A stretch of 64,000 nt of DNA from a virus (IMGVR_UViG_3300014641_000001:60266-124265); one strand, 5' to 3'. Positions 4,170-57,389 are shown, counted from the stretch's first letter. Notes: generated by a model not told the origin, from the sequence alone. Made by a program: numbers and translations.

Positions 4170-4240
4170 ATTTTTTTGCCTCCTATATGTAATTGTAAAA
4201 TTGTTGGGATTTTTGTTGATATGATTTAAAACAATGCTTT

Positions 4241-4711
4241 TTAAAGGTTTAGTAATCGTATTGCCCTATCAACATTTTTCTGTTGAAGCCCTTTGTTGAA
4301 TGATGTTTGAACTAATCTGTCCATGAACGGCTTCATATCTGCATCATCATCTATAATAATAAATGACTCTACCGGTTCACCCTTCCAGTTATCAATCCAT
4401 GTTTTTATTTCTTCTCCACGATAGCCGCTTGAAAGTCTTGGAGTTCGTGAAAGGAATGTAATACCATACTCACTTAATTTATCTTCTAGTTTAGTGAAGT
4501 CCTCTGCATTTCTGCTATGTACATCATAATCTCGATCAAACCAACCGATACGCCACGTAGAAGATAGAACAACTTTTGCACCCGTGGCATCAATAATTTC
4601 TTTAAGTAGCTTAATACGATTATCGTTTACAAAATATAATCCTCCGATCTTATCTCGACAGCCATTAAAATTAAGCACTCCATCAATGTCCAAAAATACG
4701 ACCTTGATAAT
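4241..4711 (-). CDS. HAD-superfamily protein (Swiss-army-knife RNA-repair type)
   Basis: VVFLDIDGVLN, VLSSTWR, RGEEI..W, IIIDDD; frame extends to an ATT after GGAGGTG. Confidence 0.85.
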   Translation of the reverse strand: MIKVVFLDIDGVLNFNGCRDKIGGLYFVNDNRIKLLKEIIDATGAKVVLSSTWRIGWFDRDYDVHSRNAEDFTKLEDKLSEYGITFLSRTPRLSSGYRGEEIKTWIDNWKGEPVESFIIIDDDADMKPFMDRLVQTSFNKGLQQKNVDRAIRLLNL

Positions 4712-4744
4712 ATCACCTCCAATTATTCATTTGAAATTTCACTT

Positions 4745-5275
4745 TCATCTTGCCTTTATAGTGTCTGCATATGTCATTACACTATCATAAAAATCTGATA
4801 TACTATTGTAATCACCGGCATCAAATACCGGGATGTCATAAACTTTGGCAATCCTGATTGCCTTACCAGTTCCTCCACTACCTTTACCATTCTTAGTCCA
4901 ACATAACACGAAACTTGAAGGTGTTTTCAAGTCTTTTCCAAGAACCTGATGACTATTTCTTGCTTGTAATTTTCTCGCTCCTTCTTTAAGATTATGCCAA
5001 TAAGGATGATACTTTTGAGCTATGTCAAATGCTTCAATATTTTTCACTACCAAATCAGAGTTAGAACCATTAAATCCTATCCATGGTACATATATTTCTT
5101 TTTCACCATATACTCTATCACATCCCTGTTCAAAAGCTAGGTCAGCACCATCAGCGTGTCCCGATCTTAATATAAAATCGTATTTTGTATCCATCAATTC
5201 ACCGATGTCTCTGAACACACTAAGTACATTTTCTGGTGTTTCTCTTGAACCAATACCTGCATAATAAATATTCAA
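4745..5275 (-). CDS. SLOG/DprA-like nucleotide-binding protein
   Basis: YAGIGSRETP, LRSGHADGADLAFE, ARN..QVLG, GGTG.AIRIA. Confidence 0.75.
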   Translation of the reverse strand: MNIYYAGIGSRETPENVLSVFRDIGELMDTKYDFILRSGHADGADLAFEQGCDRVYGEKEIYVPWIGFNGSNSDLVVKNIEAFDIAQKYHPYWHNLKEGARKLQARNSHQVLGKDLKTPSSFVLCWTKNGKGSGGTGKAIRIAKVYDIPVFDAGDYNSISDFYDSVMTYADTIKAR

Positions 5276-5290
5276 ATATAATTTCTCCTC

Positions 5291-5662
5291 TCAACTACTA
5301 TATTTATTTGCTAGTTCACTTAATATTTGCATTGATTCCTTACTTCCACAAACAGTTGGTTTCTTTTCGCAACCGGAAACCATTTTATTAAAATTGTCAA
5401 AAACAGTCTTTTCAACATTGTCAATTTTTACAGTTGTATATTTCATTAATCTTAAAAATTTTGCGATTTCTTCTTGGCATTTTGGGCATACATCTTTTTG
5501 TTTTATTTCCAAGATTTCTTTGGAAAACTCTGCTGCCTTGACATCGTTATTCATCGCATATACAGATTCGTACTCTAAACTTGGTACTGTGATGTCTGTG
5601 TGTTCACATTCTTTACCACAGTAATCACAGTAATATGTATATATTTCTTTTTTCTTTTCCAT
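5291..5662 (-). CDS. Hypothetical Zn-finger protein
   Basis: CDYCG...CPKC; SD present. Confidence 0.65.
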   Translation of the reverse strand: MEKKKEIYTYYCDYCGKECEHTDITVPSLEYESVYAMNNDVKAAEFSKEILEIKQKDVCPKCQEEIAKFLRLMKYTTVKIDNVEKTVFDNFNKMVSGCEKKPTVCGSKESMQILSELANKYSS

Positions 5663-5686
5663 TTAAACTCCTTTGAAAGTCCAGTT

Positions 5687-6031
5687 TTAACTTGTTTCCA
5701 TATTTTCCAATGCATATCCAAGTGCCTCAGAGAATCCACAACCACCATTATAAAAACTCACTACGTAATTAATTGTTCCGTCCGAGTTCAAGTTGGCGTG
5801 ATAAACATCATCTCCATCTAAGTCAACGTCTTTAATAATCTTATAAATATTGTTTTTATAAATAATAAATTTATTACGGTATTCGTCACAAAAACATTCC
5901 TCCCACGAATCATAATATGGCTTCATTTCTATCCCCTCTTTGTCGCAATATGATTTGCACCATGCCTCTACTGTTTGACAAATTGGAACTATTTTTAACA
6001 ACTTACCAACATGCGTTTCTGTCTGTGACAT
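5687..6031 (-). CDS. Hypothetical phage protein
   Basis: ORF with SD AGGAGG; bounded by junction palindromes. Confidence 0.7.
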   Translation of the reverse strand: MSQTETHVGKLLKIVPICQTVEAWCKSYCDKEGIEMKPYYDSWEECFCDEYRNKFIIYKNNIYKIIKDVDLDGDDVYHANLNSDGTINYVVSFYNGGCGFSEALGYALENMETS

Positions 6032-6213
6032 GTTTAATCCTCCTTATTTTTACGAATAGATGTTAAATTTCATCTGTTCCATATGGTTCTTTTTTGATAT
6101 ATTCTGGCTCTTTTATCAATCGCATCTTCATCGAATCTAAAGCACACTCCACCATCTGACACATTTCACCATTATGTTGAGTCGTATATCTCTTTTGTAA
6201 TCCTTCAAAATGC

Positions 6214-6504
6214 TTAATTGACTTTTCTAATATTGTCATTCAATGATGCCTCCAATTCGTTATATTTTGTTTTTACGCTTTCAATTAATTCACAAAACCA
6301 ATTGTCTGCATAACTTAATACTTTATCAATATCATTAGGATCAACTTCTTCATCATCTGTTTCTCTGCATTCATCTATGTACTCGTCACTATAATTAATT
6401 TCCCACCATGTTTCTCCAAAACTACAGTGTTTCGTGCAGGATAGAGTCCCTATTTTCCCAATGGTTTTTGAATAATCATTATCATTATTTTTAAACCAAT
6501 CCAT
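6214..6504 (-). CDS. Hypothetical acidic protein
   Basis: ORF with SD AAGGAG. Confidence 0.65.
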   Translation of the reverse strand: MDWFKNNDNDYSKTIGKIGTLSCTKHCSFGETWWEINYSDEYIDECRETDDEEVDPNDIDKVLSYADNWFCELIESVKTKYNELEASLNDNIRKVN

Positions 6505-6530
6505 GCTAACTCTCCTTTAAAATCCCAAAT

Positions 6531-7109
6531 TCATTTATCAAATTTTACGTTGTTGAGAATCTGATATAATTCACGGATAACCTTGGCATCATATAAAGCG
6601 TTATGTTTATCTCCTTGAATCTTATCTTCTTTGTAATTTTGATATAAGATGTCTTCTCTGGATTTGTCAAAAGCTTCCTTTGAAGTTATTCCATATTTCC
6701 GAGCAATGTCCTGATTGATATCATAGCACGCAGCGCATACGTTCTTGGGAATATCAAATGCTCCACCAAATAAATCAATAAACAAAACCATGTCGTAGTG
6801 GCAAACATCTGAAACCAGCTCTACCGATTCAAATTGCTTTAACCAATTACGAAGCATCATAGCAACCTCTTGCTTTGTGCCAATTCTATATCCACTAATA
6901 TACTGTTCTTCTGATTCATCTTTTCTGCACACGAGATTGTTTATTACGTTATCAAGCAGAAATTTACTCTTATCTGCATAGACTTGCTTCCAATCGAAAT
7001 CTGACAATTCAGCATAGAAAGTCCGCCTATCTTCTGAAATTAATCCTATGCTCACAAGCGTTGTGCTCTTATGTAATCCAGTAAATTCTGTATCAAAAAA
7101 TATCTTCAT
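6531..7109 (-). CDS. DEDDh 3'-5' exonuclease (Rv2179c-like)
   Basis: IFFDTEFTGL...LVSIG...HNALYDA. Confidence 0.85.
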   Translation of the reverse strand: MKIFFDTEFTGLHKSTTLVSIGLISEDRRTFYAELSDFDWKQVYADKSKFLLDNVINNLVCRKDESEEQYISGYRIGTKQEVAMMLRNWLKQFESVELVSDVCHYDMVLFIDLFGGAFDIPKNVCAACYDINQDIARKYGITSKEAFDKSREDILYQNYKEDKIQGDKHNALYDAKVIRELYQILNNVKFDK

Positions 7110-7150
7110 CTATTCCTCCTTATAAATAATGACTTTCACTATCCTCAAAT

Positions 7151-7579: not shown

Positions 7580-7633
7580 ATTTTCTCCTATTCATGTTGT
7601 TTTTTACTATGAAACTTCCGTTTCAATTTTTAT

Positions 7634-7897: not shown

Positions 7898-7919
7898 AAT
7901 TATTTTCTCCTTATCTTTT

Positions 7920-8919: not shown

Positions 8920-8948
8920 ATCTCACTAACTTTGAATGGTTTGTTTCA

Positions 8949-9113: not shown

Positions 9114-9139
9114 TTATTTCCTCCGATCAAAGTATTATT

Positions 9140-9373
9140 TCAATGTTCAATTGTATCTTCGCCGATAATATCAAAACACTCATTTAACCATTTAAATACA
9201 TTATTTAAGTTATATGAACTATACCCCACATTACACTCTTCCTTGTCAATACAATGATATTTGATCTCATAATATGGTTTTTCAGCAGTCCCATGAACAA
9301 CTATTTCAGCGCTTTTTACTTTTATTCTTACTTTTTCAACATCATTATTTTCTTTCATTGTCACATTGCTCAT
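9140..9373 (-). CDS. Hypothetical protein
   Basis: ORF with SD; stop lies inside a palindrome. Confidence 0.7.
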   Translation of the reverse strand: MSNVTMKENNDVEKVRIKVKSAEIVVHGTAEKPYYEIKYHCIDKEECNVGYSSYNLNNVFKWLNECFDIIGEDTIEH

Positions 9374-9426
9374 ACTGTCTTTTCCTTTCTATTATATTTT
9401 TGCTTTGAATCGTTACTTTCATGCGC

Positions 9427-9974: not shown

Positions 9975-9998
9975 CTATGAAACCTCTCTTTCAACTGA

Positions 9999-10568: not shown

Positions 10569-10605
10569 TTATACTCCTCCTACATTCTCCTTTGAAATCG
10601 TCATT

Positions 10606-10869
10606 TTAGTGCTTTTTGTAACTCCACATAAAGTAACCTTGTTCTCCAATTTGGTCACACATATCACAAGTATGAGGCACTTCTTTCTGTTGGTATTCAC
10701 AAGTTTTACAACCAATCGGAACTGCTTTAAATCCTAACATCCTTCCACTCTCGTACTTTATTCCAGTAATAAAATATTCTTTACTATCTATAAACACTGA
10801 TGCTTCTTGATTCTGTGTTACCCTTATCGGCTGTTTGCCTAATTTTTCCCAAATCTTTAAATATTTCAT
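10606..10869 (-). CDS. Hypothetical protein
   Basis: CxxC pairs; SD GGAGG. Confidence 0.65.
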   Translation of the reverse strand: MKYLKIWEKLGKQPIRVTQNQEASVFIDSKEYFITGIKYESGRMLGFKAVPIGCKTCEYQQKEVPHTCDMCDQIGEQGYFMWSYKKH

Positions 10870-10885
10870 GAATCCTCCAATAAAT

Positions 10886-11623
10886 TCATTCTTTCAACTG
10901 CTTATATGTAAATAACTTTTCAACTCTAATATTTTGTTTGTCGTCTTTATTCTTATTACTATCCAACAATGTTTTGACTTCCTTCTGCCAAATACATTCA
11001 AACTCATCTGGCATAGCATACTCGCTTATCAAAACAGTATTATATATGCTTGCAGCTTTTACCCAACTATAAAATTCCTCATACGGAAACCATTCGGTTT
11101 TATATTTTGTAGTACCTTTATATGGTATATCGCAGTAAATAACATATCCTTTTATTTTATCTAGCGGCAGATTTCTAAAATCACTGCATTTAAATCTAAT
11201 ACCTTTTAAATTTGGTATTTGTTTTAAAGTATTGACATATGCTTCTTTGGAATAATTTCTTTTGCCAATTTTATCTCGCCTATATCCACCAAACCACTTT
11301 CCACCATATGAGAGTTGAAACCCAACGTATCCAACTAAATAATCATTATATAAATCTTTATTATTTTGAATTGATTTATAATCGTCTTCTGAGATGTTTT
11401 CCGGAGGAAGCCAACCCCCTGATAGTTTATTAAGAACTGCGATTAGATAGTTGTGTACGTCACAACCAATTCTTTTTTCACATTTTATCTTATCAATCAT
11501 GTTCGCACCACCTACAAACGGCTCTAAGTATCCAATTGTATCATCAGTAATATAGGACTGTATAATGGGAGCCAATTCTTTGCTTAATCTATTTTTACTA
11601 CCTACATATTTCAATAACATCAC
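10886..11623 (-). CDS. DNA adenine methyltransferase (D12/Dam class)
   Basis: KYVGSK..L, YLEPFVGGA, YCDIPY (DPPY variant), ISEY, EKLF. Confidence 0.9.
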   Translation of the reverse strand: MMLLKYVGSKNRLSKELAPIIQSYITDDTIGYLEPFVGGANMIDKIKCEKRIGCDVHNYLIAVLNKLSGGWLPPENISEDDYKSIQNNKDLYNDYLVGYVGFQLSYGGKWFGGYRRDKIGKRNYSKEAYVNTLKQIPNLKGIRFKCSDFRNLPLDKIKGYVIYCDIPYKGTTKYKTEWFPYEEFYSWVKAASIYNTVLISEYAMPDEFECIWQKEVKTLLDSNKNKDDKQNIRVEKLFTYKQLKE

Positions 11624-11715
11624 CAGAAAGGTAGAATTCTCTTTGGTCGCGACACCTTTATTCCTTTCTGTTTTCTTATATTAAATTTCCAATCAAATTT
11701 TCATTTCATGTATTC

Positions 11716-13199: not shown

Positions 13200-13319
13200 A
13201 ATTGTGTCATGACGCTCATCTCCTTTCTAATTTTATGTATATTTATTAACCCAGTGTTCGCGATCACTAGATTCATAATTTACATTTCCGCATGAAAGCG
13301 GAGTTTCATTGCCAAATTG

Positions 13320-13982: not shown

Positions 13983-14008
13983 TTTTCTCCTTTCATGAAA
14001 CACAGATT

Positions 14009-14671
14009 CTATTGTAAAATTTTAAAGTCTACAAGTATCACTTCATGCTCACCGATAATATGACTTTTTATGTCTTCTAGTGTATATGGATATTTATTTC
14101 CAATTACAATGATATCATCTGAAATTTGATCTATATTTTCATGAGCGTCTGTTTCATAAACGCTTTTATGATAATCTCCATTCGCAATTATGGTTGACAA
14201 ATAAGATTTCCCAGCCACACTGTCACCAATGAAAACCCAGACTGGTCTTTTTTCTTTGTTTCTATTAATCTCTTTAAATAATTCCATGTTAACAGTAGCA
14301 CTTCCACCTGGGTAATAATAATCTCCTCCGTTACTATCTAATGAAAAGATGTTATTTTCTACATCATTAATTTCTTTTTCTCCTAAATCAATCAAGATAT
14401 CCAAATCAAAATATAAATCAGAAATTGGAACGTGAGTCACTCCTGCAAAACTACTAACCTTTTTTATGTATCCGTGTCCGAATGAGGCAGCACACCAACC
14501 ACTATAGCAATCTCCATATTCAGTCCATAACGTGATCTCATATTTACTTCCTTCATATTTACCATGTTCCACACAGTTAAGTATGTATAAGACATTATCA
14601 TCATAGTTATCTTCTCTGTCGTTATACGTAAGTTTTTTCTCTATCCTCATATACTTTACTTTTAAATTCAT
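14009..14671 (-). CDS. Hypothetical protein with C-terminal P-loop-like motif
   Basis: GDSVAGKS near the C-terminus. Confidence 0.7.
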   Translation of the reverse strand: MNLKVKYMRIEKKLTYNDREDNYDDNVLYILNCVEHGKYEGSKYEITLWTEYGDCYSGWCAASFGHGYIKKVSSFAGVTHVPISDLYFDLDILIDLGEKEINDVENNIFSLDSNGGDYYYPGGSATVNMELFKEINRNKEKRPVWVFIGDSVAGKSYLSTIIANGDYHKSVYETDAHENIDQISDDIIVIGNKYPYTLEDIKSHIIGEHEVILVDFKILQ

Positions 14672-14771
14672 AGCTTTCTCTCCTTTTCAATTTTTAGAAA
14701 CATGAACAGCAGGATTCGAACCTACCGTCCACATGAAACTCGTATTTCCTTGCTGTTTACTAATTCTCCGT

Positions 14772-17917: not shown

Positions 17918-17961
17918 GATAACACCTCCTAATTCTCCTTTGAAAAATATATTTTCTGTAA

Positions 17962-31504: not shown

Positions 31505-31793
31505 TAAATAAATTACCTCCGTTAAATAAAATTTTTGTATGTTAAATATGTAAAATATAAAAACATCTATTACTTCAACGTCCTCCTGGACGGAACATAG
31601 AAAATCACTCTATAATGAAAAATCTATGTCAAAATAGCTGTTTATGAGCGAACTCTCCCAAGGGTGAGCTATTTCAGCACCCGTACAGATATTCTCTGTT
31701 TAGTTTTAATTTGTTAATGGGAATTTTGATTACCAGAATTTATGTATGTGTTTTCCATCTCGTCGGCCGCCAAACCGAGGCGATAGGGTGTTA

Positions 31794-31943: not shown

Positions 31944-31982
31944 CGTTAACCACCTCCTCATATCCAATTGAAACAGGAATTT

Positions 31983-32540
31983 TCACGGTATATCTTCAAC
32001 CCAGACATCTCTTGTATAAGTAATTACTTTCTTTTCAAGATGTTCTTCCTCACCACACCAGTTACATCTTCTATGCTCTGGATCAATGTATGTAAATCTT
32101 TCCTCATCATCACTAATCCAGACCCCATGCCCGTAAATGCAGCGACCAATCTCAATGTATTTCTCATAAAACTCCTTCGTTACATCAACAAAATTTGAAT
32201 TAGCATTGCACATGTAACAGAATGTTGTTTGTGAGCACTGGCCTCCCACAATTAAGCTATTGATACACTTGCCAGTAATACAATTGGAACCCAACCCGTC
32301 CGGTTCACCGAAATACAGATTTCTTAAATCCATATTATTTACATCAAATTTTACCTTGACATAGTTTTCAGAATCGCTATCATATTTTGATTCGTCAAAA
32401 TAAACCTTTCTGTAATATGGGTTATTTTTGAGATACTTGTAAATTGCCTTACTGTACTTGTCTGACTTCTTGATATTCTTTGGTTTAATAGAAGCCAGAT
32501 CAATTACATAATCAACTTTTGCTCTTTTAACATCTACCAC
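31983..32540 (-). CDS. Hypothetical phage protein
   Basis: Y..IGRC...H...RRCNWCG. Confidence 0.7.
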   Translation of the reverse strand: MVDVKRAKVDYVIDLASIKPKNIKKSDKYSKAIYKYLKNNPYYRKVYFDESKYDSDSENYVKVKFDVNNMDLRNLYFGEPDGLGSNCITGKCINSLIVGGQCSQTTFCYMCNANSNFVDVTKEFYEKYIEIGRCIYGHGVWISDDEERFTYIDPEHRRCNWCGEEEHLEKKVITYTRDVWVEDIP

Positions 32541-33304: not shown

Positions 33305-33361
33305 TATTATTTCACCTCCTCTTATATATTCTCTCTTGAAATCGAAGTTTCCTCGCCTTAT

Positions 33362-33907: not shown

Positions 33908-33954
33908 TTCTATATTCTCCTTTATATTTTTTATTTACCCATAAAAGACGTGTT

Positions 33955-34146
33955 TCAAGAGATTACCTCCATATCTTCATCGGATAAGCACTCTTCCTCG
34001 ATTTCGCAGTCAAAATGTAAACGCAGTAATTCTAACCACACATGATTATCTAAATGGTGACCGGAAGTCCTGAGTTTTCCATCTACCTCAAGAATCACCC
34101 AATCGCCAGAATCACAAGTTGTCACCTTAATTTTTGTATTGGCCAT
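33955..34146 (-). CDS. Hypothetical protein
   Basis: ORF; stop lies in a palindrome. Confidence 0.65.
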   Translation of the reverse strand: MANTKIKVTTCDSGDWVILEVDGKLRTSGHHLDNHVWLELLRLHFDCEIEEECLSDEDMEVIS

Positions 34147-34440: not shown

Positions 34441-34465
34441 CTCCTATGAAAGTCGCATTTCATTC

Positions 34466-34693: not shown

Positions 34694-34744
34694 ATTATTC
34701 TCCTTTCTGTTCTTTTATAAAATTGATCATTCAACGATTATTTT

Positions 34745-34951: not shown

Positions 34952-34975
34952 ATGAAAACAACCTTCTATTGGATG

Positions 34976-36738: not shown

Positions 36739-36778
36739 ATCGCTTTCTCCTTTTCCATTGAAAAATTTATTTCAATAG

Positions 36779-37030: not shown

Positions 37031-37233
37031 TTTTCTTATTCCTCCTTTTCTAGCACAGGCAGCTCCTTGGGTTCAACAACTTCTTCCCATTCGGCATCGG
37101 CCACAACATTGTCATCAAAATCTTCCTCTGTATATCCATACTTTTCGTAGTCATGAAAAAATAAATCTCTACCGACCATCATTTATTTATTCTCCTTTGA
37201 AAGAACCATTTCAATCACCAACATTAAACAAAT

Positions 37234-38075: not shown

Positions 38076-38108
38076 AATTATATTCTCCTCTTTTCTCCCA
38101 TGAAAGGT

Positions 38109-38408
38109 TCATTTTAAAGTTAGTTGAAAATTCCCAATATCTATATTCTGAATCTGTTTTATTTTATCGTTGATCGCCTGATTCACACGTGAATCTATGA
38201 TCCTATCCACTTTATCAGTAGACGTTTTAATTGCCTCACAAACTTCTTTACCATTAACTATGTCGCCTTTTAGCTCTTTGACGAGTTTGTTTTTAACCTC
38301 ATTCTTGAACTGATCAATATTAAAAGAGTTTACAATTTCAGAAACCACCATATTTGTAATATGATCTGCGTCCCAGCCTTCTATTTTAAATGTGTAACTG
38401 CCATTCAT
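38109..38408 (-). CDS. Hypothetical protein
   Basis: ORF track. Confidence 0.65.
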   Translation of the reverse strand: MNGSYTFKIEGWDADHITNMVVSEIVNSFNIDQFKNEVKNKLVKELKGDIVNGKEVCEAIKTSTDKVDRIIDSRVNQAINDKIKQIQNIDIGNFQLTLK

Positions 38409-39087: not shown

Positions 39088-39224
39088 TTTCTTCTCCTCT
39101 TTCCCTTTGAATGATTTGTTTTATTTAAGTTTAAATCCTACGTTATCAGTGAAGGCAACCATGCCTTTTGCAATTAATTCATCATTAAGAATCAGCGTGG
39201 GGAGTTTGACCTCCCCATACCGTA

Positions 39225-41759: not shown

Positions 41760-41783
41760 TTAACTACCGATGAAATTCCGTTT

Positions 41784-42017
41784 TTACCTAGCAGCCTTCA
41801 AAAGGATATCTCTAAAACTCAGATCATTGTTATTTGTTCTTTTCCCATTAATCCTTACATGACATTTTGTACATTTCTCATACCTGTTGTGTTGCCCATT
41901 TTCGAAATGAGTTCCAGTGATCATAGTGTGTCCACATCTATCGCAATTCTTCATGAATACCCTCCTTTGATATTGCTCGGTAAATTGACAGTATTTTACC
42001 GACATGCTATAATTCAA
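41784..42017 (-). CDS. Small Zn-ribbon protein
   Basis: CDRCG...CTKC; likely start is MKNC. Confidence 0.55.
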   Translation of the reverse strand: MNYSMSVKYCQFTEQYQRRVFMKNCDRCGHTMITGTHFENGQHNRYEKCTKCHVRINGKRTNNNDLSFRDILLKAAR

Positions 42018-46186: not shown

Positions 46187-46346
46187 TTACAACGCATCCT
46201 CCCTTCTTCAACACTTTTTGCCAATCTCTTTATACTCAACATTATATACTACGCTTTATATAAAGTCAAGTATATATAGTAAATATATTTTATATTTATA
46301 TTTCTTTCTATATATGCTATACTATATATAAAGTGAGGTGTATATA

Positions 46347-46628: not shown

Positions 46629-46650
46629 CTTCAATTGATGAAACAGTTCT

Positions 46651-47340
46651 TTAATCGAGTCTTTTAGTTTTTATACTTGCCAACATCTTAAATACTTCTG
46701 ATGGATCGTTCAGCAATATACCACCGCCCACTCTATTTGAATTAAATTCAGACGAAAAGTAATTTATGTAATCATTTTCTTTCTCATATAAATTACTTGT
46801 GGGATATGCATAGATTCTAGAAGTATCTAATGCTCTAAAACTATCAATTGACAATACTGAACTATCTACTGCGCCAATTGGGAACATCAGTCTGTCAAAA
46901 GGTTTTATTTTACTCCAATGTTGCTGAATACGTTTTTTTATATCCAGACTTGTACCAATATAGATTTGACAGTATTCATCAAGGATCATCATATAATAGC
47001 CAGGAATTTTATCAAAGAAAGTTAAATCCTCGACATTCTGGAATTGCCTGTGTTTTTCTAAAAAGCCACCTATCTCTTTATCGAATACATCATGATCTAA
47101 TGATTCAAATAATTTCATATTTAAGTCAAAGTTTACAAGGCATTTTTCTCTATGTGCCGTACACCACTCATCAGTATAACATCTACCTTCCTCATCTTCG
47201 TAGCAGCCTTCTAGCCCCATTAATCTACTTTTAAAGGAACTAATTTTGCTTATTTCGGCATATTTACTTCTTTCCAGTTTAAAGCCATACTTGCTCTGTT
47301 GTACGATAACACCAAAGTGTTTTATGGTATTCTTGCTCAT
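46651..47340 (-). CDS. GIY-YIG nuclease family protein
   Basis: GYYMM...QIYIGTS.DIKKRIQQHW...E...N. Confidence 0.75.
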   Translation of the reverse strand: MSKNTIKHFGVIVQQSKYGFKLERSKYAEISKISSFKSRLMGLEGCYEDEEGRCYTDEWCTAHREKCLVNFDLNMKLFESLDHDVFDKEIGGFLEKHRQFQNVEDLTFFDKIPGYYMMILDEYCQIYIGTSLDIKKRIQQHWSKIKPFDRLMFPIGAVDSSVLSIDSFRALDTSRIYAYPTSNLYEKENDYINYFSSEFNSNRVGGGILLNDPSEVFKMLASIKTKRLD

Positions 47341-47367
47341 TCTCGACTCCCCATTAAAATTTAACTT

Positions 47368-47802
47368 TTAGTCGGTTAGTAAAATAATTAAATTTTTAAT
47401 AATTCTGGCAGAGTATTCTTCATATAACGTATTTGCGTACACGTTATTAATCCTTTCTTCTGAATTCAATTCAAGTTCAAACCAATCTTCTCTGTTTGAA
47501 AAGTCTTTAATCCATTTTACTTTTCTACCATACCCCATATCATTACCATTGCTAAAAGTAAATGATTTAATACCCTGACCTACAACAAACCCAATGGCTT
47601 TTATAAATATCTTTCCAGATTCACCCTTCTTCCCCATATTAAATGACTTTAAATAAACGACATCTCCAATTTTCACCCGTCTTAACATTTCATACAAAGC
47701 ACTCGCATCTTCTTTTTCATAGCCTATACAAAAACACTCTTCTTCGAGAAAATCTTTTGTAACATCAACATCATAATACGCCCCTGCTCCGAAAACAGCC
47801 AT
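47368..47802 (-). CDS. Hypothetical protein, possibly PUA/EVE-like
   Basis: F....CIGY...VKIGDVVYLK...AIG.V...RKVKW. Confidence 0.6.
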   Translation of the reverse strand: MAVFGAGAYYDVDVTKDFLEEECFCIGYEKEDASALYEMLRRVKIGDVVYLKSFNMGKKGESGKIFIKAIGFVVGQGIKSFTFSNGNDMGYGRKVKWIKDFSNREDWFELELNSEERINNVYANTLYEEYSARIIKNLIILLTD

Positions 47803-47873: not shown

Positions 47874-48677
47874 TTACTTATCGTATATAAACGACATTCT
47901 CTGTTTTCCAGCTTCAATATTTTTCTTTTCTAAACAAGCGTATCTTTCTGTAATTCTTAAATCACTATGACCAAGCTGACTTGATACTTCCAATAATGCC
48001 TGGCTTTTATCTGGTGCATTTGCGATATATTGGTGTGCCATTGTTTTTCTAAGTCCATGAGTCCCTATCTTCTGCTTAAGGCCGGCTTCCCTTCGCCCGT
48101 CCTCCATTATTTTCCACCACTCCTTAGAACCAAGATATTCGCTCTTTTGACTTTTAAAGATATAATCATTAAGTTTTTGATCTGTATCATAGTTATTCAA
48201 CCAGGAGAGCCATTCAGACAATGCTATTTCAAAATCATTGTTCCAGGATAATTCAATATGTTTTGTTTTGATGATAATCCCATCTTCGTCTCTCTTAATT
48301 GTTTTTTCAGGCACATAATCAGCCGATGCCTTATATTCCCAATTCTTATCGAAAATGTCAGACCATTTAAGGGAACAAAAATCTCCACCTCGTAGCCCCA
48401 CATTAATAGCACAAACAAACATTGTAAGGTTCCTCCTTGCTATTTTCTCCTTTGACAAAGAGGAAGCATTTTCAATTCTGTCTTGGAATATCTTATATAT
48501 TGCAATGATATCATCACGTTCATATAAGCATTCCATTTTTGTAGACTCTCTTGTACCAACTTTTTGCTTAGAGCCGTAGCGCAAATCTGGTGTTCCATCA
48601 GTCTTCAAATGAGGATACTGGATCACATCTGCACTCTTATTTTCCATTATACAACGACTTTCCTGCATAGCTGACAT
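47874..48677 (-). CDS. Tyrosine recombinase/integrase (compact)
   Basis: Full catalytic set: GLRGGD (R), PEKT (K), HGLRKT (HxxR), LGHS (H), TERY (Y). Confidence 0.93.
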   Translation of the reverse strand: MSAMQESRCIMENKSADVIQYPHLKTDGTPDLRYGSKQKVGTRESTKMECLYERDDIIAIYKIFQDRIENASSLSKEKIARRNLTMFVCAINVGLRGGDFCSLKWSDIFDKNWEYKASADYVPEKTIKRDEDGIIIKTKHIELSWNNDFEIALSEWLSWLNNYDTDQKLNDYIFKSQKSEYLGSKEWWKIMEDGRREAGLKQKIGTHGLRKTMAHQYIANAPDKSQALLEVSSQLGHSDLRITERYACLEKKNIEAGKQRMSFIYDK

Positions 48678-48785
48678 ATTGACTACCTCCTTATATTCAT
48701 TGCCTTATAAGCACTATAAAAGGCACTGGATTATTATTCTCCAATGCCCTATGTACTCCCCATAAACTCATTTAAAAACCTAGTT

Positions 48786-49133
48786 TTATTCGTATAATAT
48801 TGATCCCAACTCGTCAACAATTTGTTCGTAAACCAGATATGCTCCATCTGAATCATAAGTGTCTTTTGATTTCTGTTCATATTGCTTTAGTAATTCTTCT
48901 ATCTGCTGACGATACCACTCAGGATTGTTTCTGTTTACCCCTGATTTTATAAGAGTTTTATCGCACAATATTTTTTCGTACTTGTTTTTATTTATTCTAT
49001 TTAGGGATTTTAAAACAGCGTTTGCTTCAACCTCATTAAATACCTTTGCAGAAGATATATCCCCATTAAAAACCGGAGTGCTGCCGATCCAGTTCACAAA
49101 ACACCTCTCATTGCTATCTTTAATTATGTACAT
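48786..49133 (-). CDS. Hypothetical protein
   Basis: ORF; start adjusted; stop lies in a palindrome. Confidence 0.65.
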   Translation of the reverse strand: MYIIKDSNERCFVNWIGSTPVFNGDISSAKVFNEVEANAVLKSLNRINKNKYEKILCDKTLIKSGVNRNNPEWYRQQIEELLKQYEQKSKDTYDSDGAYLVYEQIVDELGSILYE

Positions 49134-49365: not shown

Positions 49366-49405
49366 TAAAACACTTCCTCTCCCAATCAAACTCAAATTTC
49401 ATCTA

Positions 49406-49678: not shown

Positions 49679-49940
49679 ATATGTACCTCCTTTTTAAATA
49701 AATCTATTATTTTAACTGACTTTCCACTTTAAATAATGTACGAACAACTCTATCCCAACTGTCTTCTATTTAACCACTCCACCCAATCATTTGTGTCACT
49801 TGGATATTTATCAGGGTTTTCTTTAACATCGTTAAGCAGAAGAGCCAGTCTTAATCTATCAAGACTCCCAGCTGCTTGTGCTTTATTATTGAACCTTCCA
49901 AACTGATCTTTCACTCTTTGCCCCCAATCAAATAATCATT

Positions 49941-50096
49941 TCAATTCAAAATTTCTTCTGGATTCACATCAATAAAAAATACATCTAAACTGATTTCACA
50001 CCCACAATTACCACATACGTCAGTATTTAATTCAGTTCCACAGTCTGGACATATTAACTTTATATTTTCTATTTCTATTTCAGGTTTCTTTTTCAT
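49941..50096 (-). CDS. Small Zn-ribbon protein (51 aa)
   Basis: CPDCG...CGNCG; SD GGAGG; flanked by palindromes; not in the track. Confidence 0.65.
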   Translation of the reverse strand: MKKKPEIEIENIKLICPDCGTELNTDVCGNCGCEISLDVFFIDVNPEEILN

Positions 50097-50130
50097 TATA
50101 TTACCTCCAATTTCAAATGAATCAATCCTT

Positions 50131-50373
50131 TTAATCTTCTGCCGGTCTTGGGAATCCTGACCAGTGTGTAACTTCTAATTCTTCACGTTTAGCCCTACCT
50201 TCCCATTCCCATCTCTTTATAATTTCTCCATCTACAGTCTCTTCACGCCATTTCATCACCATAGTTACTTTTCGATTCCAAGTATTACACCTTACTGATA
50301 CTAGATAATAAGTCCCACGTCCACTTAAATCCTTGGGCTCTTGCTCTAAAATGCTTATCCAATTCGCTTCCAT
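50131..50373 (-). CDS. DUF551-like phage protein
   Basis: WISI....P...VTHW..FP.P. Confidence 0.75.
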   Translation of the reverse strand: MEANWISILEQEPKDLSGRGTYYLVSVRCNTWNRKVTMVMKWREETVDGEIIKRWEWEGRAKREELEVTHWSGFPRPAED

Positions 50374-51353: not shown

Positions 51354-51391
51354 GTATAATTCCCTCCAACCTTTTTAATAAAATCTTGTTT

Positions 51392-51901
51392 TTATTGATT
51401 TAAAAATTCCGTTTGTATATTATTTTCTTTTATCACTTGTGACAGCTTACACAACCCAAGCTGTGTATCTATATGATATGTCTCAACAAATCTCGGTTGT
51501 GTTTTATCATCAATAATGTTTTTGGCTTGTTCAATACATTTTTCAATTCCAAGAATTTGACTATTAGCTTCAAAAAATTCGTTTAATTCTTTTTTATAAA
51601 TTGGGTTTATCGATTGTGATTCAGGTGTTTCGTTTCCACAGTGTCCACCTGCTCTTATGTTTAAATCCTTATAGTCTTTATATAGCCTATTTGCATATTC
51701 AAGCGGCATTAATCCATTACATACCCAATACGTCCATGCCCTTGTAAACGTAAAACCATTCAATATCCCTATATATCTTGTTTTTACTTCCGTATGCATG
51801 TAACTTGGTAGTTTAAAAATAGGGATGTTTGCAATCTGTAATTCTTCTTTAACTTTTTGATCCGCATCTGGTTTATAATCATGTCTTGCTAAATTTTCCA
51901 T
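51392..51901 (-). CDS. Conserved hypothetical phage protein
   Basis: F.RAW.YW, R..GHCG, YHIDTQ.GL. Confidence 0.75.
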   Translation of the reverse strand: MENLARHDYKPDADQKVKEELQIANIPIFKLPSYMHTEVKTRYIGILNGFTFTRAWTYWVCNGLMPLEYANRLYKDYKDLNIRAGGHCGNETPESQSINPIYKKELNEFFEANSQILGIEKCIEQAKNIIDDKTQPRFVETYHIDTQLGLCKLSQVIKENNIQTEFLNQ

Positions 51902-52125
51902 ACATTCTCCTTTTCTGTTTGAAATATCTCTTCTATTGGTCACTTTATTTACAGCAAAGCTTTACTTTCTTTTTGATACATCATACCTTTTTTCTCACAG
52001 TATGAAACATATAAAAGATAAAGTAAATCAAACTCATACTTATGCAATAAATAATCATCATCATTTTGTGGATTATATTTTTCTTCAAACCATTTTTTGA
52101 ACGTCATTTTTAACCTCCTTTCAAA

Positions 52126-52308: not shown

Positions 52309-52336
52309 TTAAACCTCCTATGAAAGCACACTTCTA

Positions 52337-52710: not shown

Positions 52711-53216
52711 AGAAACACCTCCAATATTGAATCTACCGCTAATTATGTGCGGTTAGTGACATAAGCCAGATCAACCACTAATTCTCCTGTGGTAAGCAGC
52801 AATCACTTATTGACTGCCGGTAATGCCTTGTTTACCTTTGACAGCTACGGCTTTTATAATCTGTCACCAGATCACCGACAAGGCTATGTATTAAGATATA
52901 AGACTATGTAAAGCAAAAATCTCTGTGAAGTTATTAAATGTGTTTATGTATATGCCATTTGCAAACATCTCAATTTTTCCTTCCTTATTCTTTTGATAGT
53001 GAAATTTTACATTGCTCATTCTTAATATTCTCCTTTTGTTTGCATAAATAAAGCCATGCTTATAATTATCAATAAAGCTGCCAATGTCCAGTTTCCACAC
53101 CTATCAGACAGCATAAAGAGCGAAAAAATAGAAAGCATCGGCAAAATGCTTCCTAAGAGTTTGTAATATTTATTCAATTGTGCAGATATCATGTAATCCT
53201 CCTTAAAATGTGCTTT

Positions 53217-53486
53217 TCATTTATCCTCAAAACATTCCCACATATCAGTCTGACAACCATCACCGCCCAACATACAATTGTCCATAACAAGATGGAAACA
53301 TCGTTCACAAGGACTCTCTTCTGGATTGTTTAATAAAAATTCTGCTTCACGATCAAGACTCAAGACTTCATTTGCAACTAAATTTGCGGTCATTCTATTG
53401 CACCCGACCATTGACAGAATTCGATTTTCCATAATCGTCATTACATTATTTTTAGCATTTTTTAGTTCTTCTCTTGTTAATGCCAT
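53217..53486 (-). CDS. Hypothetical protein
   Basis: SD; flanked by palindromes. Confidence 0.7.
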   Translation of the reverse strand: MALTREELKNAKNNVMTIMENRILSMVGCNRMTANLVANEVLSLDREAEFLLNNPEESPCERCFHLVMDNCMLGGDGCQTDMWECFEDK

Positions 53487-53525
53487 TATAAATACCTCCT
53501 TAAAACCTGTTTTTCATATACTGTT

Positions 53526-53822
53526 TTATCTTCCTACAATTCTTTGTAGTCCGTTTCCCATAAAGAATGATACAAAGGTCTTTTCAAGTTCTTCCTCATT
53601 GTTTACAGTTATTACTTCACCCTTACCAGACACACAAATAATGCCGTTTTCTGTTCTTGTAGCTACAAGTTTAGTTCCGTGACCTTCTGACATCCACATT
53701 GTATCTGTTTCTTCTTCATATCCTCCCATTGGAAAGTATAATTGTCTGAATAATTTTGTTAATACTTCGCTCATTTTCATCCTCACTTTCTGCCTGTTTA
53801 GGCTATAAAATCTATTTTTCAT
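53526..53822 (-). CDS. Hypothetical protein
   Basis: ORF track. Confidence 0.6.
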   Translation of the reverse strand: MKNRFYSLNRQKVRMKMSEVLTKLFRQLYFPMGGYEEETDTMWMSEGHGTKLVATRTENGIICVSGKGEVITVNNEEELEKTFVSFFMGNGLQRIVGR

Positions 53823-54115: not shown

Positions 54116-54156
54116 TATTTATCCACCTCATTTTTTATTATGAAATTACAAATTCA

Positions 54157-54375: not shown

Positions 54376-54413
54376 GTGTATTATTCTCCTTTCGTTTTAA
54401 TAAAACGTGCATT

Positions 54414-55157
54414 TTATGCTATCTTACTTTTATGTTTCTTCAGTTCTGTCTTGTTTAAGCTTCTAACAAGTTTGCTCCCATTGTTTTCTGCTCCAATAAG
54501 TAACCCTTCTGTGATCATTTCATCTATAATTTTTCCAATGTGTCGCATCGTCTGACCTTTTCCATAGTTTCCATTTTCATTAATACCAATACGCTTTAAT
54601 CCAAAACGATCAGATAAATTTACGCATATATCAAGCACATAATAAAACTTATTCGTTCTTGACGTACCGCAACTTTCAAATAGTGCCTTACGTATTTCTG
54701 TATTCTTTGTGTTCAAATATTTATCATATTCAGTATCAGAAACATCATAGACTGTTTCATATAAATCGACCCATCTAAGGTAAAAAGTGTTGTGTTTCTG
54801 TAAGGCTTCTGCAATTTGCTTTACTTCATTTTTTAACACTTCTCCACTAAAATCCTGTGGGTGTAAATATAGGTGCTGCATTCCTTTGCTTACTTCCATA
54901 CAACTTCCGTTGTTATATCCACTTTTAATATTCCAACCTAATAGCTCTAAAGCTGCATACACTTCATTATAGAAATTGTTTCTATCCTCTTCCGAAAAAC
55001 TGAAAGATGGATAACCAAAATTTTTAGCCTCAATTCTGAAATGTACATTTACATATTCATTGTCATAATCGTCGCCTGGGTTCCAATTATTTGTTAAAGT
55101 GTGGTCTGCGCCGTATTCGTTACCTGTTCCATTTTGATGATATTTAATTGTTTCCAT
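54414..55157 (-). CDS. Hypothetical protein
   Basis: 247-aa ORF; flanked by palindromes. Confidence 0.75.
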   Translation of the reverse strand: METIKYHQNGTGNEYGADHTLTNNWNPGDDYDNEYVNVHFRIEAKNFGYPSFSFSEEDRNNFYNEVYAALELLGWNIKSGYNNGSCMEVSKGMQHLYLHPQDFSGEVLKNEVKQIAEALQKHNTFYLRWVDLYETVYDVSDTEYDKYLNTKNTEIRKALFESCGTSRTNKFYYVLDICVNLSDRFGLKRIGINENGNYGKGQTMRHIGKIIDEMITEGLLIGAENNGSKLVRSLNKTELKKHKSKIA

Positions 55158-55207
55158 CTAATTCCCTCCATTTAATTAAAGACATGAAACTTACTTTTTA
55201 TCTGCTT

Positions 55208-55852: not shown

Positions 55853-55872
55853 GGCTTTATACCTCCTTTAAT

Positions 55873-56430
55873 TTAACAAACTAACAATAATGCTGTTTTT
55901 CTGTTTCCACTTTTAAATGGTTCCATGTTAGATACCCATACAGATCCGTAAGGTGCAGTCATTGATCCTTTTAATTTCTTCCACCCTTCCGGAATCTCTG
56001 TTAAAAGTTCAACTTTTTCCTTGGCTGCAAATTCTTTGATCTTTCTATGTTTTCTCTCTGTTGCTGTTTCTCCATTAGCCGATGAAGCCAGTCTATAAAC
56101 TTCATCAATTAACTTTTCTTTGTTCTCTTCTGTTGCTTCAAACATCCAATCGAAATTTATTTCATATCTTCCGGGTTTCTCTTGAGGATTATACATTCCA
56201 TAACAATATCCCTCTGTATCTGTCACATAAGTTTGAATACTCCAATATGTTTCCAGAACCCTATCCATATATCCATGTTTATTCCATAATACAGGAATTG
56301 CATTACTTCCACCTGGATTAGTACATTTGCTTAACTCCATCACTATCTTTTCACCTTTTGCATTAGGTTCTGTGAATGTATAAAACCATCTTGTTTCTGC
56401 CATCTGTTCAATTGTATATTCTTTTTTCAT
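55873..56430 (-). CDS. Hypothetical protein
   Basis: ORF; start adjusted; C-terminal PEGWK...TAP.G..W. Confidence 0.7.
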   Translation of the reverse strand: MKKEYTIEQMAETRWFYTFTEPNAKGEKIVMELSKCTNPGGSNAIPVLWNKHGYMDRVLETYWSIQTYVTDTEGYCYGMYNPQEKPGRYEINFDWMFEATEENKEKLIDEVYRLASSANGETATERKHRKIKEFAAKEKVELLTEIPEGWKKLKGSMTAPYGSVWVSNMEPFKSGNRKTALLLVC

Positions 56431-56667
56431 TGTTATTTCCTCCATATGATTTATTTTATTATTTATTTCCACTATAAAAGCCACTAGAGTATTTTCTAAT
56501 GGCTTCAAACTGGAATCAGATTAGTTGGGTGTATTAGAAGTTACGGCCTCTCTACCGTAGTAGTTTGTCGCCCTGATACCGTTGCCCTATAGGATGCTGT
56601 CAGCATTGACTCTTTCTAATAATCGCTATATCGGTTCCCCTTTATGCCACCCAATTAAATAAGAATT

Positions 56668-56916
56668 TTATTCGCTCTCTATTTTTAAAAACTTATGAAA
56701 CTCGTCATAAGTAACATATAAGTAAGAAGCTGTTGAATAATCGAATTTTCTAAGCGTAGAAGCTTCTTTATTCATGTCAATAATGTAAGAAATATTCCCT
56801 CTGCTAAAATAGTGAATTCCATGAACTTCTGTATGCTTATATCCATTTACCCGATCGTTAACAACAAGTTTTCTTCTCCTTCCGTCCATGACCGGCTCAA
56901 AGGTAATTGTTTTCAT
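56668..56916 (-). CDS. Hypothetical protein
   Basis: ORF; stop lies in a palindrome. Confidence 0.65.
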   Translation of the reverse strand: MKTITFEPVMDGRRRKLVVNDRVNGYKHTEVHGIHYFSRGNISYIIDMNKEASTLRKFDYSTASYLYVTYDEFHKFLKIESE

Positions 56917-56941
56917 GTGCTATTCTTCCCTTTCTTAATGC

Positions 56942-57015
56942 TTACGGACTTGTGACCGCTTGACGTGTGTCAGGTGCATTAAAACGGCTATGTGAGAGCC
57001 GTTCCACTCTGCTAA
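56942..57015 (-). ncRNA. Twister ribozyme (circularly permuted, P5-type), putative
   Basis: Minus strand GCA-GAGUG-[AACGGCU/AGCCGUU]-U-UAAUGC-AC-[P3]-GCGGUCACAAGUCCG. Pseudoknots CAC/GUG and AC/GU are compatible with the twister consensus. Confidence 0.7.
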
Positions 57016-57224
57016 TACACAATAGGTGTGTAATGCGTTTCGTATACACCTACATAATACCTACAATGACCATATTTTTCATCATTGAAAAGTTCTCCAT
57101 TATGGAAGCATAAACGTAAACATTTTTCTGCATCTTTTTCGCTATTAAATACAAAACATTCGTCACTATCTCCAAGGGCTTCTCCGTAATCAAACCAACG
57201 ATATTTTCTATAAATTGTGTACAT
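57012..57224 (-). CDS. Hypothetical protein
   Basis: ORF with SD. Confidence 0.6.
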   Translation of the reverse strand: MYTIYRKYRWFDYGEALGDSDECFVFNSEKDAEKCLRLCFHNGELFNDEKYGHCRYYVGVYETHYTPIVY

Positions 57225-57254
57225 TTTATGTTACCTTCCTGTAAAATTCGGTTT

Positions 57255-57389
57255 TTATCTACTTTCAAGCTCTTTTAAGAATTCTTCACAATGATCAATA
57301 TCCTTTTTGTGGCTTCTTCCTGTTTCTTGTTCCATACCTTTCCAGTAAAGAATCATTTCTTCTACTTGCCTTTTTAACTTTTCCTTCAT
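57255..57389 (-). CDS. Hypothetical protein (44 aa)
   Basis: SD GGAGG; exactly bounded by palindromes at 57241 and 57405; not in the track. Confidence 0.6.
   Translation of the reverse strand: MKEKLKRQVEEMILYWKGMEQETGRSHKKDIDHCEEFLKELESR

Follow-up and report, generated by a model that had tools for sequence, protein, structure and literature searches.

Introduction

Why do the stop codons of so many early genes of an SPbeta-like phage fall at one fixed position within a short inverted repeat, and does this repeat delimit exchangeable gene cassettes? How large temperate phages exchange accessory genes without damage to the adjacent genes has been a question since the modular theory of phage evolution. 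The window analysed here, a stretch of 64,000 nt, covers the early arm of an SPbeta-like phage with a genome of 124 kb, and for this stretch it had been predicted that genes are trimmed to integron-like cassette boundaries.

A palindrome at early-gene junctions

About half of the early-gene junctions of this phage contain a 16-base palindrome, TGAAA-N6-TTTCA (TRAAA-N6-TTTYA in its wider form). The palindromy includes the flanking A..T, giving (A)TGAAA-N6-TTTCA(W) as the consensus in this phage, and conservation ends at 6 bp per arm. The exact motif was found 24 times in the window where about 3 copies are expected (2.75 in shuffles, with 0/100 shuffles reaching 24), and it ranked top in a de novo palindrome scan. 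Copies with at most one mismatch number ~47 among the 101 minus-strand early-gene junctions (Table 1). Most exact copies (20/24) and 28/70 of the one-mismatch copies are non-coding, in an arm which is only 14% non-coding, while all window centres differ from one another (48/48), and the centre sequence is thus free. The motif is specific to the early arm, as the tightly packed late arm shows no enrichment and holds 4/28 of the genome copies. Strong promoter-like and terminator-like sites are present inside the co-oriented array, and replication operons are interspersed.

Table 1. Palindrome copies and associated features in the window, by descending coordinate.
Position	Strand	Feature	Context
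57607..57622	-	Palindrome, 1 mismatch	Intergenic, stop 6 nt upstream
57406..57421	-	Palindrome, 1 mismatch	Intergenic, then SD
57242..57257	-	Exact palindrome	Stop TAA = bases 1-3
56655..56670	-	Palindrome, 1 mismatch (3' arm TTTAA)	Stop in register
55185..55200	-	Exact palindrome	Intergenic, stop 10 nt upstream
54401..54416	-	Exact palindrome	Stop in register
54141..54156	-	Palindrome, 1 mismatch	Intergenic, in-frame stop 3 nt upstream
53806..53821	-	Exact palindrome	Stop TGA in register
53501..53516	-	Exact palindrome	Intergenic, stop 12 nt upstream
53204..53219	-	Exact palindrome	Stop in register, SD immediately after
52321..52336	-	Palindrome, 1 mismatch	Intergenic, stop 3 nt upstream
51920..51935	-	Palindrome, 1 mismatch	Intergenic
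51379..51394	-	Exact palindrome	Stop in register
50118..50133	-	Palindrome, 1 mismatch (ATTCA)	Stop in register
49928..49943	-	Palindrome, 1 mismatch (TTTGA)	Stop in register
49699..49714	-	Palindrome, 1 mismatch	Intergenic
49386..49401	-	Palindrome, 1 mismatch	Intergenic
48773..48788	-	Exact palindrome	Stop in register, just upstream of 267-aa recombinase gene
47874..48677	-	267-aa tyrosine recombinase gene (PF00589)	Within array
47355..47370	-	Exact palindrome	Stop in register
46639..46654	-	Palindrome-like copy	Gene end, 5-base centre if stop put in register
46630-46592		Terminator-like hairpin	After palindrome-like copy 46639..46654
41771..41786	-	Exact palindrome	Stop in register
39108..39123	-	Palindrome, 1 mismatch	Intergenic, then SD
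38101..38116	-	Exact palindrome	Upstream ORF ends in centre (offset 5)
37198..37213	-	Exact palindrome (TGAAA..TTTCA)	Intergenic, then SD
36759..36774	-	Exact palindrome	Intergenic
34953..34968	-	Palindrome, 1 mismatch	Intergenic
34718..34733	-	Palindrome, 1 mismatch	Intergenic
34447..34462	-	Exact palindrome	Intergenic, in-frame stop 6 nt upstream
33942..33957	-	Exact palindrome	Stop in register
33337..33352	-	Palindrome, 1 mismatch (GGAAA)	Intergenic
31969..31985	-	7-base-centre variant	Stop TGA in register
31616..31631	-	Palindrome, 1 mismatch	Intergenic
17941..17956	-	Palindrome, 1 mismatch	Intergenic, then SD
14734..14749	-	Palindrome, 1 mismatch (GGAAA)	Intergenic
13996..14011	-	Palindrome, 1 mismatch (TAGAA)	Stop TAG in register
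13293..13308	-	Exact palindrome	Intergenic
11693..11708	-	Palindrome, 1 mismatch	Intergenic
10881..10896	-	Palindrome, 1 mismatch	Upstream ORF ends in centre (offset 8)
10593..10608	-	Exact palindrome	Stop in register
9978..9993	-	Exact palindrome	Intergenic; purine-rich centre GAGAGG may be the SD for the next gene
9406..9421	-	Palindrome, 1 mismatch	Intergenic
9127..9142	-	Palindrome, 1 mismatch	Stop in register
8933..8948	-	Palindrome, 1 mismatch	Intergenic, stop 3 nt upstream
7610..7625	-	Exact palindrome	Intergenic
7123..7138	-	Palindrome, 1 mismatch	Intergenic
6518..6533	-	Palindrome, 1 mismatch (TGAAT)	Stop in register
5674..5689	-	Exact palindrome	Stop in register
4732..4747	-	Exact palindrome	Stop in register
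4227..4243	-	7-base-centre variant	Stop TAA in register

Stop codons in register with the palindrome

The original prediction placed stop codons in a fixed register inside one arm, and this was borne out: the coordinates it listed are all low ends of minus-strand ORFs (19/19), and these stops form the first three bases of the 16-mer (bases 2-4 of the 18-mer used in that prediction). The sites themselves are less uniform: at 4241 and 31983 the centre is 7 bases long, the copies at 6531, 9140, 14009, 49941, 50131 and 56668 carry one arm mismatch, and a further register case, with its stop at 53819, had been missed. Motif bases 1-3 are thus the stop of the preceding gene in 18 copies plus the two with the 7-base centre. 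Four more ORFs had been described as stopping in the core; this holds for 38109 (exact motif) and 10886 (one mismatch), whereas 52126 and 36217 are weak matches with two mismatches.

Relative to upstream stops, the motif shows a clear spike at offset 0, taken by 18 of the 42 copies that have such a stop in the range -30 to +12 (p = 8e-19 vs uniform spread). Counting all offsets, 26/42 copies near a stop are in frame with the upstream ORF, including offsets of -3, -6 and -12. In the relatives, offset 0 was found in 16/54 and an in-frame position in 33/54 (p = 2.7e-5), and the register is present in SPbeta and phi3T too. More than half of the palindrome copies have no stop codon on the motif.

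An A-rich stop context does not explain this register, and the far arm is conserved, since TTTYA follows stops only at a fixed spacing: after the 28 gene stops in TRAAA context it was found at spacer 6 in 12 and at spacer 7 in two, and at none of spacers 3-5 and 8-10. The expectation that the next SD begins in or just after the other arm was confirmed as well, with the first SD-like word 0-4 bases past the 3' arm in 19/40 copies having one. By contrast, we found no sign that genes are trimmed to the site: both register genes that carry Pfam domains encode them in full, with another 9-12 residues after the domain.

Conservation and breakpoints in SPbeta, phi3T and close relatives

SPbeta and phi3T contain the element as TAAAA-N6-TTTTA, with 36 copies in SPbeta vs 3 for a reversed-pattern control; compared with SPbeta, both arms are altered together in this phage, with G in place of A and C in place of T. 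The SPbeta and phi3T site extends to an 11-6-11 layout with outer TYT..ARA elements, which are not conserved in this phage or its G1 relatives, and some SPbeta copies (76171, 99498) are located between a terminator and the next promoter, where little RNA is made. From these comparisons we read the motif as a lineage-conserved junction element of SPbeta-like phages, associated with early and accessory gene junctions. We found no mention of the palindrome in the openly accessible SPbeta papers that were searched.

Between SPbeta and phi3T, homology blocks have both their starts and their ends at the motif or within it, with single-base precision. One block of 3.2 kb (99.97% identity) has motifs at its borders and unrelated sequence on either side, two islands (centres TGCATA and AGACTG) are retained with both flanks different, and one deletion joined sites with unlike centres (TTGAAG and AGACTG). 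Among close relatives of this phage, breakpoints were found at 30/42 motif junctions vs 113/332 motif-less junctions, an enrichment which is partly confounded, because accessory regions are rich in both motifs and mosaicism. In one motif-to-motif deletion (G1) the crossover was at the outer edge of the 3' arm, outside the centre. Clean indels among the relatives have SD or ATG microhomologies as frequently as the motif, and a dedicated enzyme is therefore not supported.

These comparisons support the palindrome as a marker of the boundaries of exchangeable gene modules, in the sense of a recombination joint. The proposed cassette boundary can be retained in this form, given the homology-block ends and breakpoints, but not as integron membership, which fails on the defining features tested: IntI and attC architecture are both missing, and the genes are not truncated.

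Possible functions of the palindrome

The explanation we favour, tentatively, is that the motif is a double-stranded DNA site for a putative dimeric protein, with offset 0 as the tightest packing and exchange as a possible by-product. Such a protein would contact two half-sites of 5-6 bp each on the same helix face, separated by a fixed 6-bp centre of free sequence, and both arms have changed together between lineages. Because the 5' half-site starts with TGA or TAA, offset 0 would pack stop, site and next SD most tightly without constraining the upstream protein, and the register would be a consequence of the site's own sequence, leaving the reading frame closed whatever gets joined downstream. 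New sites probably arise on pre-existing TRA-AA stops, and later nonsense changes a few codons upstream would give the in-frame offsets of -3, -6 and -12. With 10-12 bases in common at about half of the junctions, the palindrome would also be a preferred crossover for short-homology module exchange between related phages, similar to the PeSLs of T4-type phages, and this may be no more than a by-product. The explanation is favoured by the motif's abundance and intergenic position, the fixed spacing of the far arm, the register shared with the relatives, SPbeta and phi3T, the joint arm changes, the free centres, the weak fold as RNA, the SPbeta copies between terminator and promoter, the late arm without enrichment, the intact register genes and the breakpoints at the motif. 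Against it, the in-frame share of nearby copies (61-62%) is higher than packing alone obviously predicts, the breakpoint enrichment is partly confounded, and the 11-6-11 layout in SPbeta and phi3T is typical of tyrosine-recombinase core sites.

With regard to the nature of such a protein, a simple immunity repressor is not supported, as the control region of the cI-like HTH repressor contains no motif copy and its probable operators at 60043-60086 are other repeats, unlike the motif. An operator had been disfavoured originally on the ground that it would be expected at promoters, an argument which is not supported, given that in cluster A mycobacteriophages the stoperators, to which the repressor binds, are found in short gaps between genes (PMC9283540).

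A less likely alternative is that the palindromes are core sites of a dedicated exchange system, in which a phage tyrosine recombinase would bind the arms and swap strands across the 6-bp centre, with each junction's centre as an address preserving gene order, and the stops in the 5' arm ensuring that exchange never opens a frame. An Xer-like protein of the YomM type, encoded outside the window at genome 11906-12928, would be the candidate enzyme. The layout of two arms around 6 bp fits, as do the 11-6-11 layout with TYT and ARA elements, the retained islands and the motif-bounded block in SPbeta and phi3T, and the YomM-like protein of this phage keeps the R, HxxR, H and Y residues, although in SPbeta YomM a K replaces the second catalytic R. 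The YomM-like recombinase is common to this phage, SPbeta and the motif-bearing relative G001 and missing in four motif-less relatives, but this co-occurrence is confounded by the same presence/absence profile in terminase and tail genes. The deletion between unlike centres and the G1 crossover outside the centre also argue against such a system, this phage shows no conservation past 6 bp per arm, and generic short-homology recombination is sufficient for the SD/ATG indels. Neither the 267-aa nor the YomM-like recombinase meets any NCBIfam Xer or IntI cut-off, with both far below those for Xer and the 267-aa protein below all NCBIfam cut-offs, and no homologue of the latter was found in G001-G005, including G001. 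That SPbeta-like phages hold a built-in cassette exchange, with a YomM-type recombinase, 6-bp centres as position addresses and 5'-arm stops keeping both genes intact, as a counterpart of integrons or dif modules with another site and enzyme, is rather unlikely.

The palindrome could also act in mRNA, as a small hairpin linking the stop in the 5' arm to the SD just past the 3' arm, for termination-reinitiation coupling, binding of a translational repressor or processing of early transcripts. The stop position in 18-20 copies, the SD spacing in 19/40, the early-arm specificity and RNA processing by a twister ribozyme at at least one junction of this phage are all consistent with this. The predicted folding is not: the MFE averages -1.4 kcal/mol, no fold is predicted for half of the exact copies, mismatches in the would-be pairs are as common as wobble pairs (A-C in 12/48 copies vs G-U in 8), and in SPbeta the stem would consist of five A-U pairs. 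Copies also occur past terminators and ahead of promoters, as well as behind the final gene of an operon where no SD comes next, and over half lie off any stop. An RNA hairpin as the palindrome's function is hence unlikely.

A classical integron-like system, with folded single-strand attC-type sites, an IntI-type integrase and cassettes read from one promoter, would match the small co-oriented genes with a site at each 3' end and the tyrosine recombinase gene inside the array, but is very improbable, as the 267-aa recombinase scores 19.3 bits vs a cut-off of 265 with the IntI model TIGR02249 and the YomM-like protein gives no match, the site is 16-18 bp vs 57-141 bp for attC and lacks both a GTTRRRY core and extrahelical bases, the strands of the palindrome barely fold, the array is interspersed with replication genes and operons having their own promoters and terminators, and motif-bearing G001 has no homologue of the 267-aa recombinase.

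SPbeta and phi3T, which also carry the element, are model phages of Bacillus subtilis amenable to genetics, and the choice between operator and recombinase site is directly testable in that host. The palindrome gives access, at the level of sequence, to the way in which large temperate phages exchange accessory genes, many with roles in defence or counter-defence, while the neighbouring genes stay intact, and can be used in annotation to pinpoint gene ends and small-gene boundaries in SPbeta-like phages.

Comparison with known systems

attC sites are 57-141 bp long, with R''-L''/L'-R' pairing, a GTTRRRY core and extrahelical bases, and are active as a folded single strand. The palindrome shares with them the position at the 3' end of small co-oriented genes and a stop that can be within the site, while their size, folded single-strand structure, conserved core and IntI integrase are all missing. 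The dif/pdif Xer sites of dif modules are 11-6-11 tyrosine-recombinase core sites; here the inverted arms around a 6-bp centre, the adjoining exchangeable gene modules and the 11-6-11 layout of SPbeta-group copies are similar, but this phage conserves only 5-6 bp per arm.

The promoter-early stem-loop (PeSL) cassettes of T4-type phages, which combine a sigma-70-type promoter with a terminator hairpin (Arbiol et al. 2010, PMC2839356; Comeau et al. 2014, PMC4122927), are likewise short conserved intergenic motifs repeated among small non-essential early genes, and in both cases copies of the motif mark where insertions, deletions and replacements between related phages begin and end. Unlike PeSLs, the palindrome has no promoter (83 promoter-like hits vs 85.4 in shuffles, and no -10 element in the motif), folds weakly or not at all, with terminator-like hairpins lying apart from it, has a strict 5-6-5 layout with a free centre, and overlaps stop codons. 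Cluster A mycobacteriophages (L5 gp71) have stoperators of 13-14 bp, asymmetric sites that follow the direction of transcription and share the sequence of the early-promoter operator (PMC9283540, PMC6550527). As with the palindrome, there are dozens of copies in short gaps between co-directional genes, and since stoperators sit far from promoters, the palindrome's location does not speak against a repressor-type reading; the differences are its palindromic form and the different repeats in the control region of the cI-like gene. Finally, SPBRE, the operator in SPbeta of MrpR (YopR), a protein with a tyrosine-recombinase fold, was derived from ten ChAP-seq promoters and contains ATACA-N7-TGTAT within ACAAATACAAAWAATATGTATATAAT (PMC10516654). 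It is also a repeated intergenic element in the same phage family, but its sequence differs from that of the palindrome, and the 15-bp SPBRE has about ten occurrences, which are embedded in promoters.

Stop codons in register with the junction palindrome

An unbiased palindrome scan ranked TRAAA-N6-TTTYA, with a one-base extension (A..T), at the top, and exact copies of this 16-mer occur 24 times in the window versus 2.75 times in shuffled sequences. The exact copies are non-coding in 20/24 cases, as are 28/70 of those with one mismatch, versus only 14% of the early arm as a whole. The 101 gene junctions hold 47 credible copies of the motif, and the median junction gap is 47 nt with the motif versus 18.5 nt without it. 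The original prediction had placed the stop codons of upstream genes in a fixed register within one palindrome arm, and all 19 stops that it listed are ORF ends formed by bases 1-3 of TRAAA-N6-TTTYA on the coding strand. This position (offset 0) accounts for 18 of the 42 copies near an upstream stop (p = 8e-19 versus a uniform spread), and 26 of the 42 are in frame with the upstream ORF; two additional copies with the stop in register have a 7-base centre. The next SD had been predicted to begin often in or just after the other arm, and the first SD-like word does lie 0-4 bases past the 3' arm in 19 of the 40 copies that have one.

Such a register could in principle come from the A-rich context of stop codons, without conservation of the distal arm. 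As the sole cause this is ruled out by the far arm: TTTYA follows the 28 TRAAA stops after a spacer of 6 in 12 cases and of 7 in two, and after no other spacing between 3 and 10; TTTYA has a background rate of 0.008 per base.

The early arm and its features

The window (bases 60266-124265 of the 124,265-bp virus contig) belongs to an SPbeta-like phage and represents its early or replication arm. This assignment follows from a polymerase with 44% identity to YorL of Bacillus phage SPbeta and from further SPbeta matches of the phage, which include the replication module, terminase, tape measure, HU-like protein, YomM-like tyrosine recombinase and an RNA polymerase probably of the YonO type. Minus-strand genes occupy positions ~1 to 59,400, among them genes for a PolC/DnaE-type polymerase, RecJ-like and exonuclease V-like proteins, DnaB helicase, NAD ligase and NrdD. 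A megablast search of the window against known phages found no DNA similarity.

Coordinates and other observations are collected in the table. The 839-aa ORF probably encodes the late-gene RNA polymerase, a single-chain enzyme of the YonO type, and the repeat at the contig end points to overlapping assembly ends of a genome that is circular or terminally redundant. Because a twister ribozyme lies in a junction gap, the mRNA is probably cleaved at one junction or more. The ~1-kb stretch before the strand switch could hold a non-coding RNA, and the AT-rich nested repeats may be an origin or control region. The 20-nt direct repeats differ from the junction palindrome and probably serve the lysis-lysogeny switch as operators.

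Features of the window and of the remainder of the contig
Feature	Position	Strand	Observation
Two motif copies with purine-rich, SD-like 6-bp centres (GAGAGG, GGAGGA)	window 9978-9993; genome 25979-25994		Start codon within 2-3 bases past 3' arm
720-aa protein	window 42948-45110	-	Weak sigma-70 region 2 match with GmrSD_N (DUF262) domain; unusual combination
Second promoter-like site	window 45507-45478		Adjoined by the nested repeats
AT-rich nested direct and inverted repeats (TATATAC..., 36-47 nt)	window 46241-46346		One strong promoter-like site overlapped; long terminator hairpin immediately upstream
267-aa tyrosine recombinase	window 47874-48677	-	Inside the array
Type-P5 twister ribozyme (RF02684)	window 56944-57013	-	48.8 bits vs gathering score 37.6; in 95-nt gap between two small early genes
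Anti-repressor-like gene	window 57871-58590		
Stretch of ~1 kb without a convincing ORF	window 58600-59560		Several hairpins; between anti-repressor-like gene and strand switch
Two 20-nt direct repeats, 24 nt apart	window 60043-60086		Divergent switch region, just upstream of HTH gene
Cro/C1-type (cI-like) HTH gene	window 60115-60546	+	Control-region repeats differ from the motif
839-aa ORF, outside window	genome 2658-5177	+	tblastn match to SPbeta DNA (1e-15, 24% identity); same length as yonO coordinates imply
Contig end repeat	final 100 bases of contig		Repeat of start bases 25-124

Conservation of the palindrome in related phages

SPbeta contains TAAAA-N6-TTTTA 36 times versus 3 for the reversed control, with 29 of the 36 in its early arm, and many of its genes stop in register (among them yoqG, yoqS, yoqY, yorT, mtbP, yorZ, yosC, yosF and yosR); phi3T follows the same pattern. 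Among 78 viral loci sharing a 685-aa protein with the window phage, TGAAA-N6-TTTCA is restricted to the closest group (G1), which has 46 unique copies versus 2.0 expected. The register recurs in G1, where 16/54 copies are at offset 0 and 33/54 are in frame (p = 2.7e-5). Whole-contig motif counts were 17 versus 6 in the control for one relative (G001), with no excess in four more distant genomes, and a Staphylococcus SPbeta-like phage is modestly enriched (7 versus 0.9 in 44 kb). The two arms differ jointly between lineages (TAAAA/TTTTA versus TGAAA/TTTCA).

When all early-arm copies of SPbeta (L001/L002) and phi3T (L004/L083) were considered, the site extends to TYT-N3-TAAAA-N6-TTTTA-N3-ARA, a 28-bp 11-6-11 layout with T-Y-T at -6 to -4 and A-R-A at +20 to +22, the A at +22 being present in 50/51 copies; no such extension was seen in the window phage. 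An apparent second palindrome in GC-richer relatives (AAGTGTT-N5-AACACTT) proved to be a single orthologous site within a gene.

A putative protein-binding site at gene junctions

We take the element to be a putative double-stranded DNA site for a dimeric protein, located at early and accessory gene junctions. The register would be a consequence of the stop codon with which the half-site opens, and offset 0 would be the tightest packing of stop, site and SD that leaves the upstream protein unconstrained, while also keeping the frame closed after any exchange. Sites may have been born on stops, with later upstream nonsense changes yielding offsets of -3, -6 and -12, and the in-frame excess at these offsets fits such a history. 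In SPbeta, copies at 76171 and 99498 are preceded by a terminator and followed by the next promoter, and some others lie past the last gene of an operon, which argues for a role on DNA.

Exchange at the palindrome

In a blastn comparison of SPbeta with phi3T, a 3.2-kb block of 99.97% identity with unrelated flanks runs from the 5' edge of one motif copy to within the 3' arm of another, and the interval between two copies is filled by yorT in SPbeta and by a methylase gene in phi3T. In phi3T, the site following yoqG has the centre seen behind yoqI in SPbeta, and two islands (~17-30 bp; centres TGCATA and AGACTG) are retained although both flanks differ.

Within G1, 8.1% of HSP ends fall inside the motif, versus 0.6% for random and 4.7% for random intergenic positions. 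Short gaps are breakpoints in 30/42 cases with the motif versus 113/332 without (odds ratio 4.8, p = 6e-6), a comparison confounded by the presence of both motifs and mosaicism in the accessory regions. Of the clean indels, about 11 are distinct; 3-4 of these are at motif arms, and the others coincide with 7-10-base microhomologies at an SD or start codon. The exchange events can thus be explained by generic short-homology recombination, for which the motif is simply the longest shared word. The crossover of one motif-to-motif deletion is at the outer edge of the 3' arm. The window phage and G1 have two 6-bp centres in common versus 0.6 expected, which is not significant.

Other readings of the site

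The palindrome was also compared with SPBRE, the MrpR (YopR) operator of SPbeta, but SPBRE as derived here from ten MrpR-bound promoters (PMC10516654) reads ATACA-N7-TGTAT and lies inside a promoter, and this identity was rejected. A stable RNA hairpin was likewise rejected, as was covariation of the arms as RNA pairing: the mean MFE is -1.4 kcal/mol, a fold is absent from half of the exact copies, and A with C is as frequent at the would-be pair as G with U. A promoter or terminator reading was rejected.

Candidate proteins and comparison with integrons

The 267-aa recombinase was discarded as a partner of the motif, no homologue being found in the motif-bearing G001; BLAST of this protein against YopP and YopR gave no significant match. 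The YomM-like Xer-type recombinase, encoded outside the window, is common to the window phage, SPbeta and G001 and absent from four motif-less relatives, a profile identical to that of the terminase and tail genes. It has the catalytic R, HxxR, H and Y in the window phage, whereas in SPbeta YomM a K replaces the second R; a PDB sequence search with the YomM-like protein gave no match.

The suggestion that genes are trimmed precisely to the site, as in integron cassettes, did not hold, as in two register genes the encoded domains (HAD_SAK_2 and Rv2179c-like) are intact; a comparison of C-termini with homologues elsewhere was without power, a single register gene having a homologue among 110 loci. 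Of the proposed cassette boundary, the exchange at sites between SPbeta and phi3T and within G1 stands, and integron membership falls, both recombinases being generic and far under the IntI and Xer cut-offs. Set beside integron attC, every feature of which is absent from the motif site, the junction palindrome is a place where genome alignments show exchange, be it the purpose of the site or a by-product.
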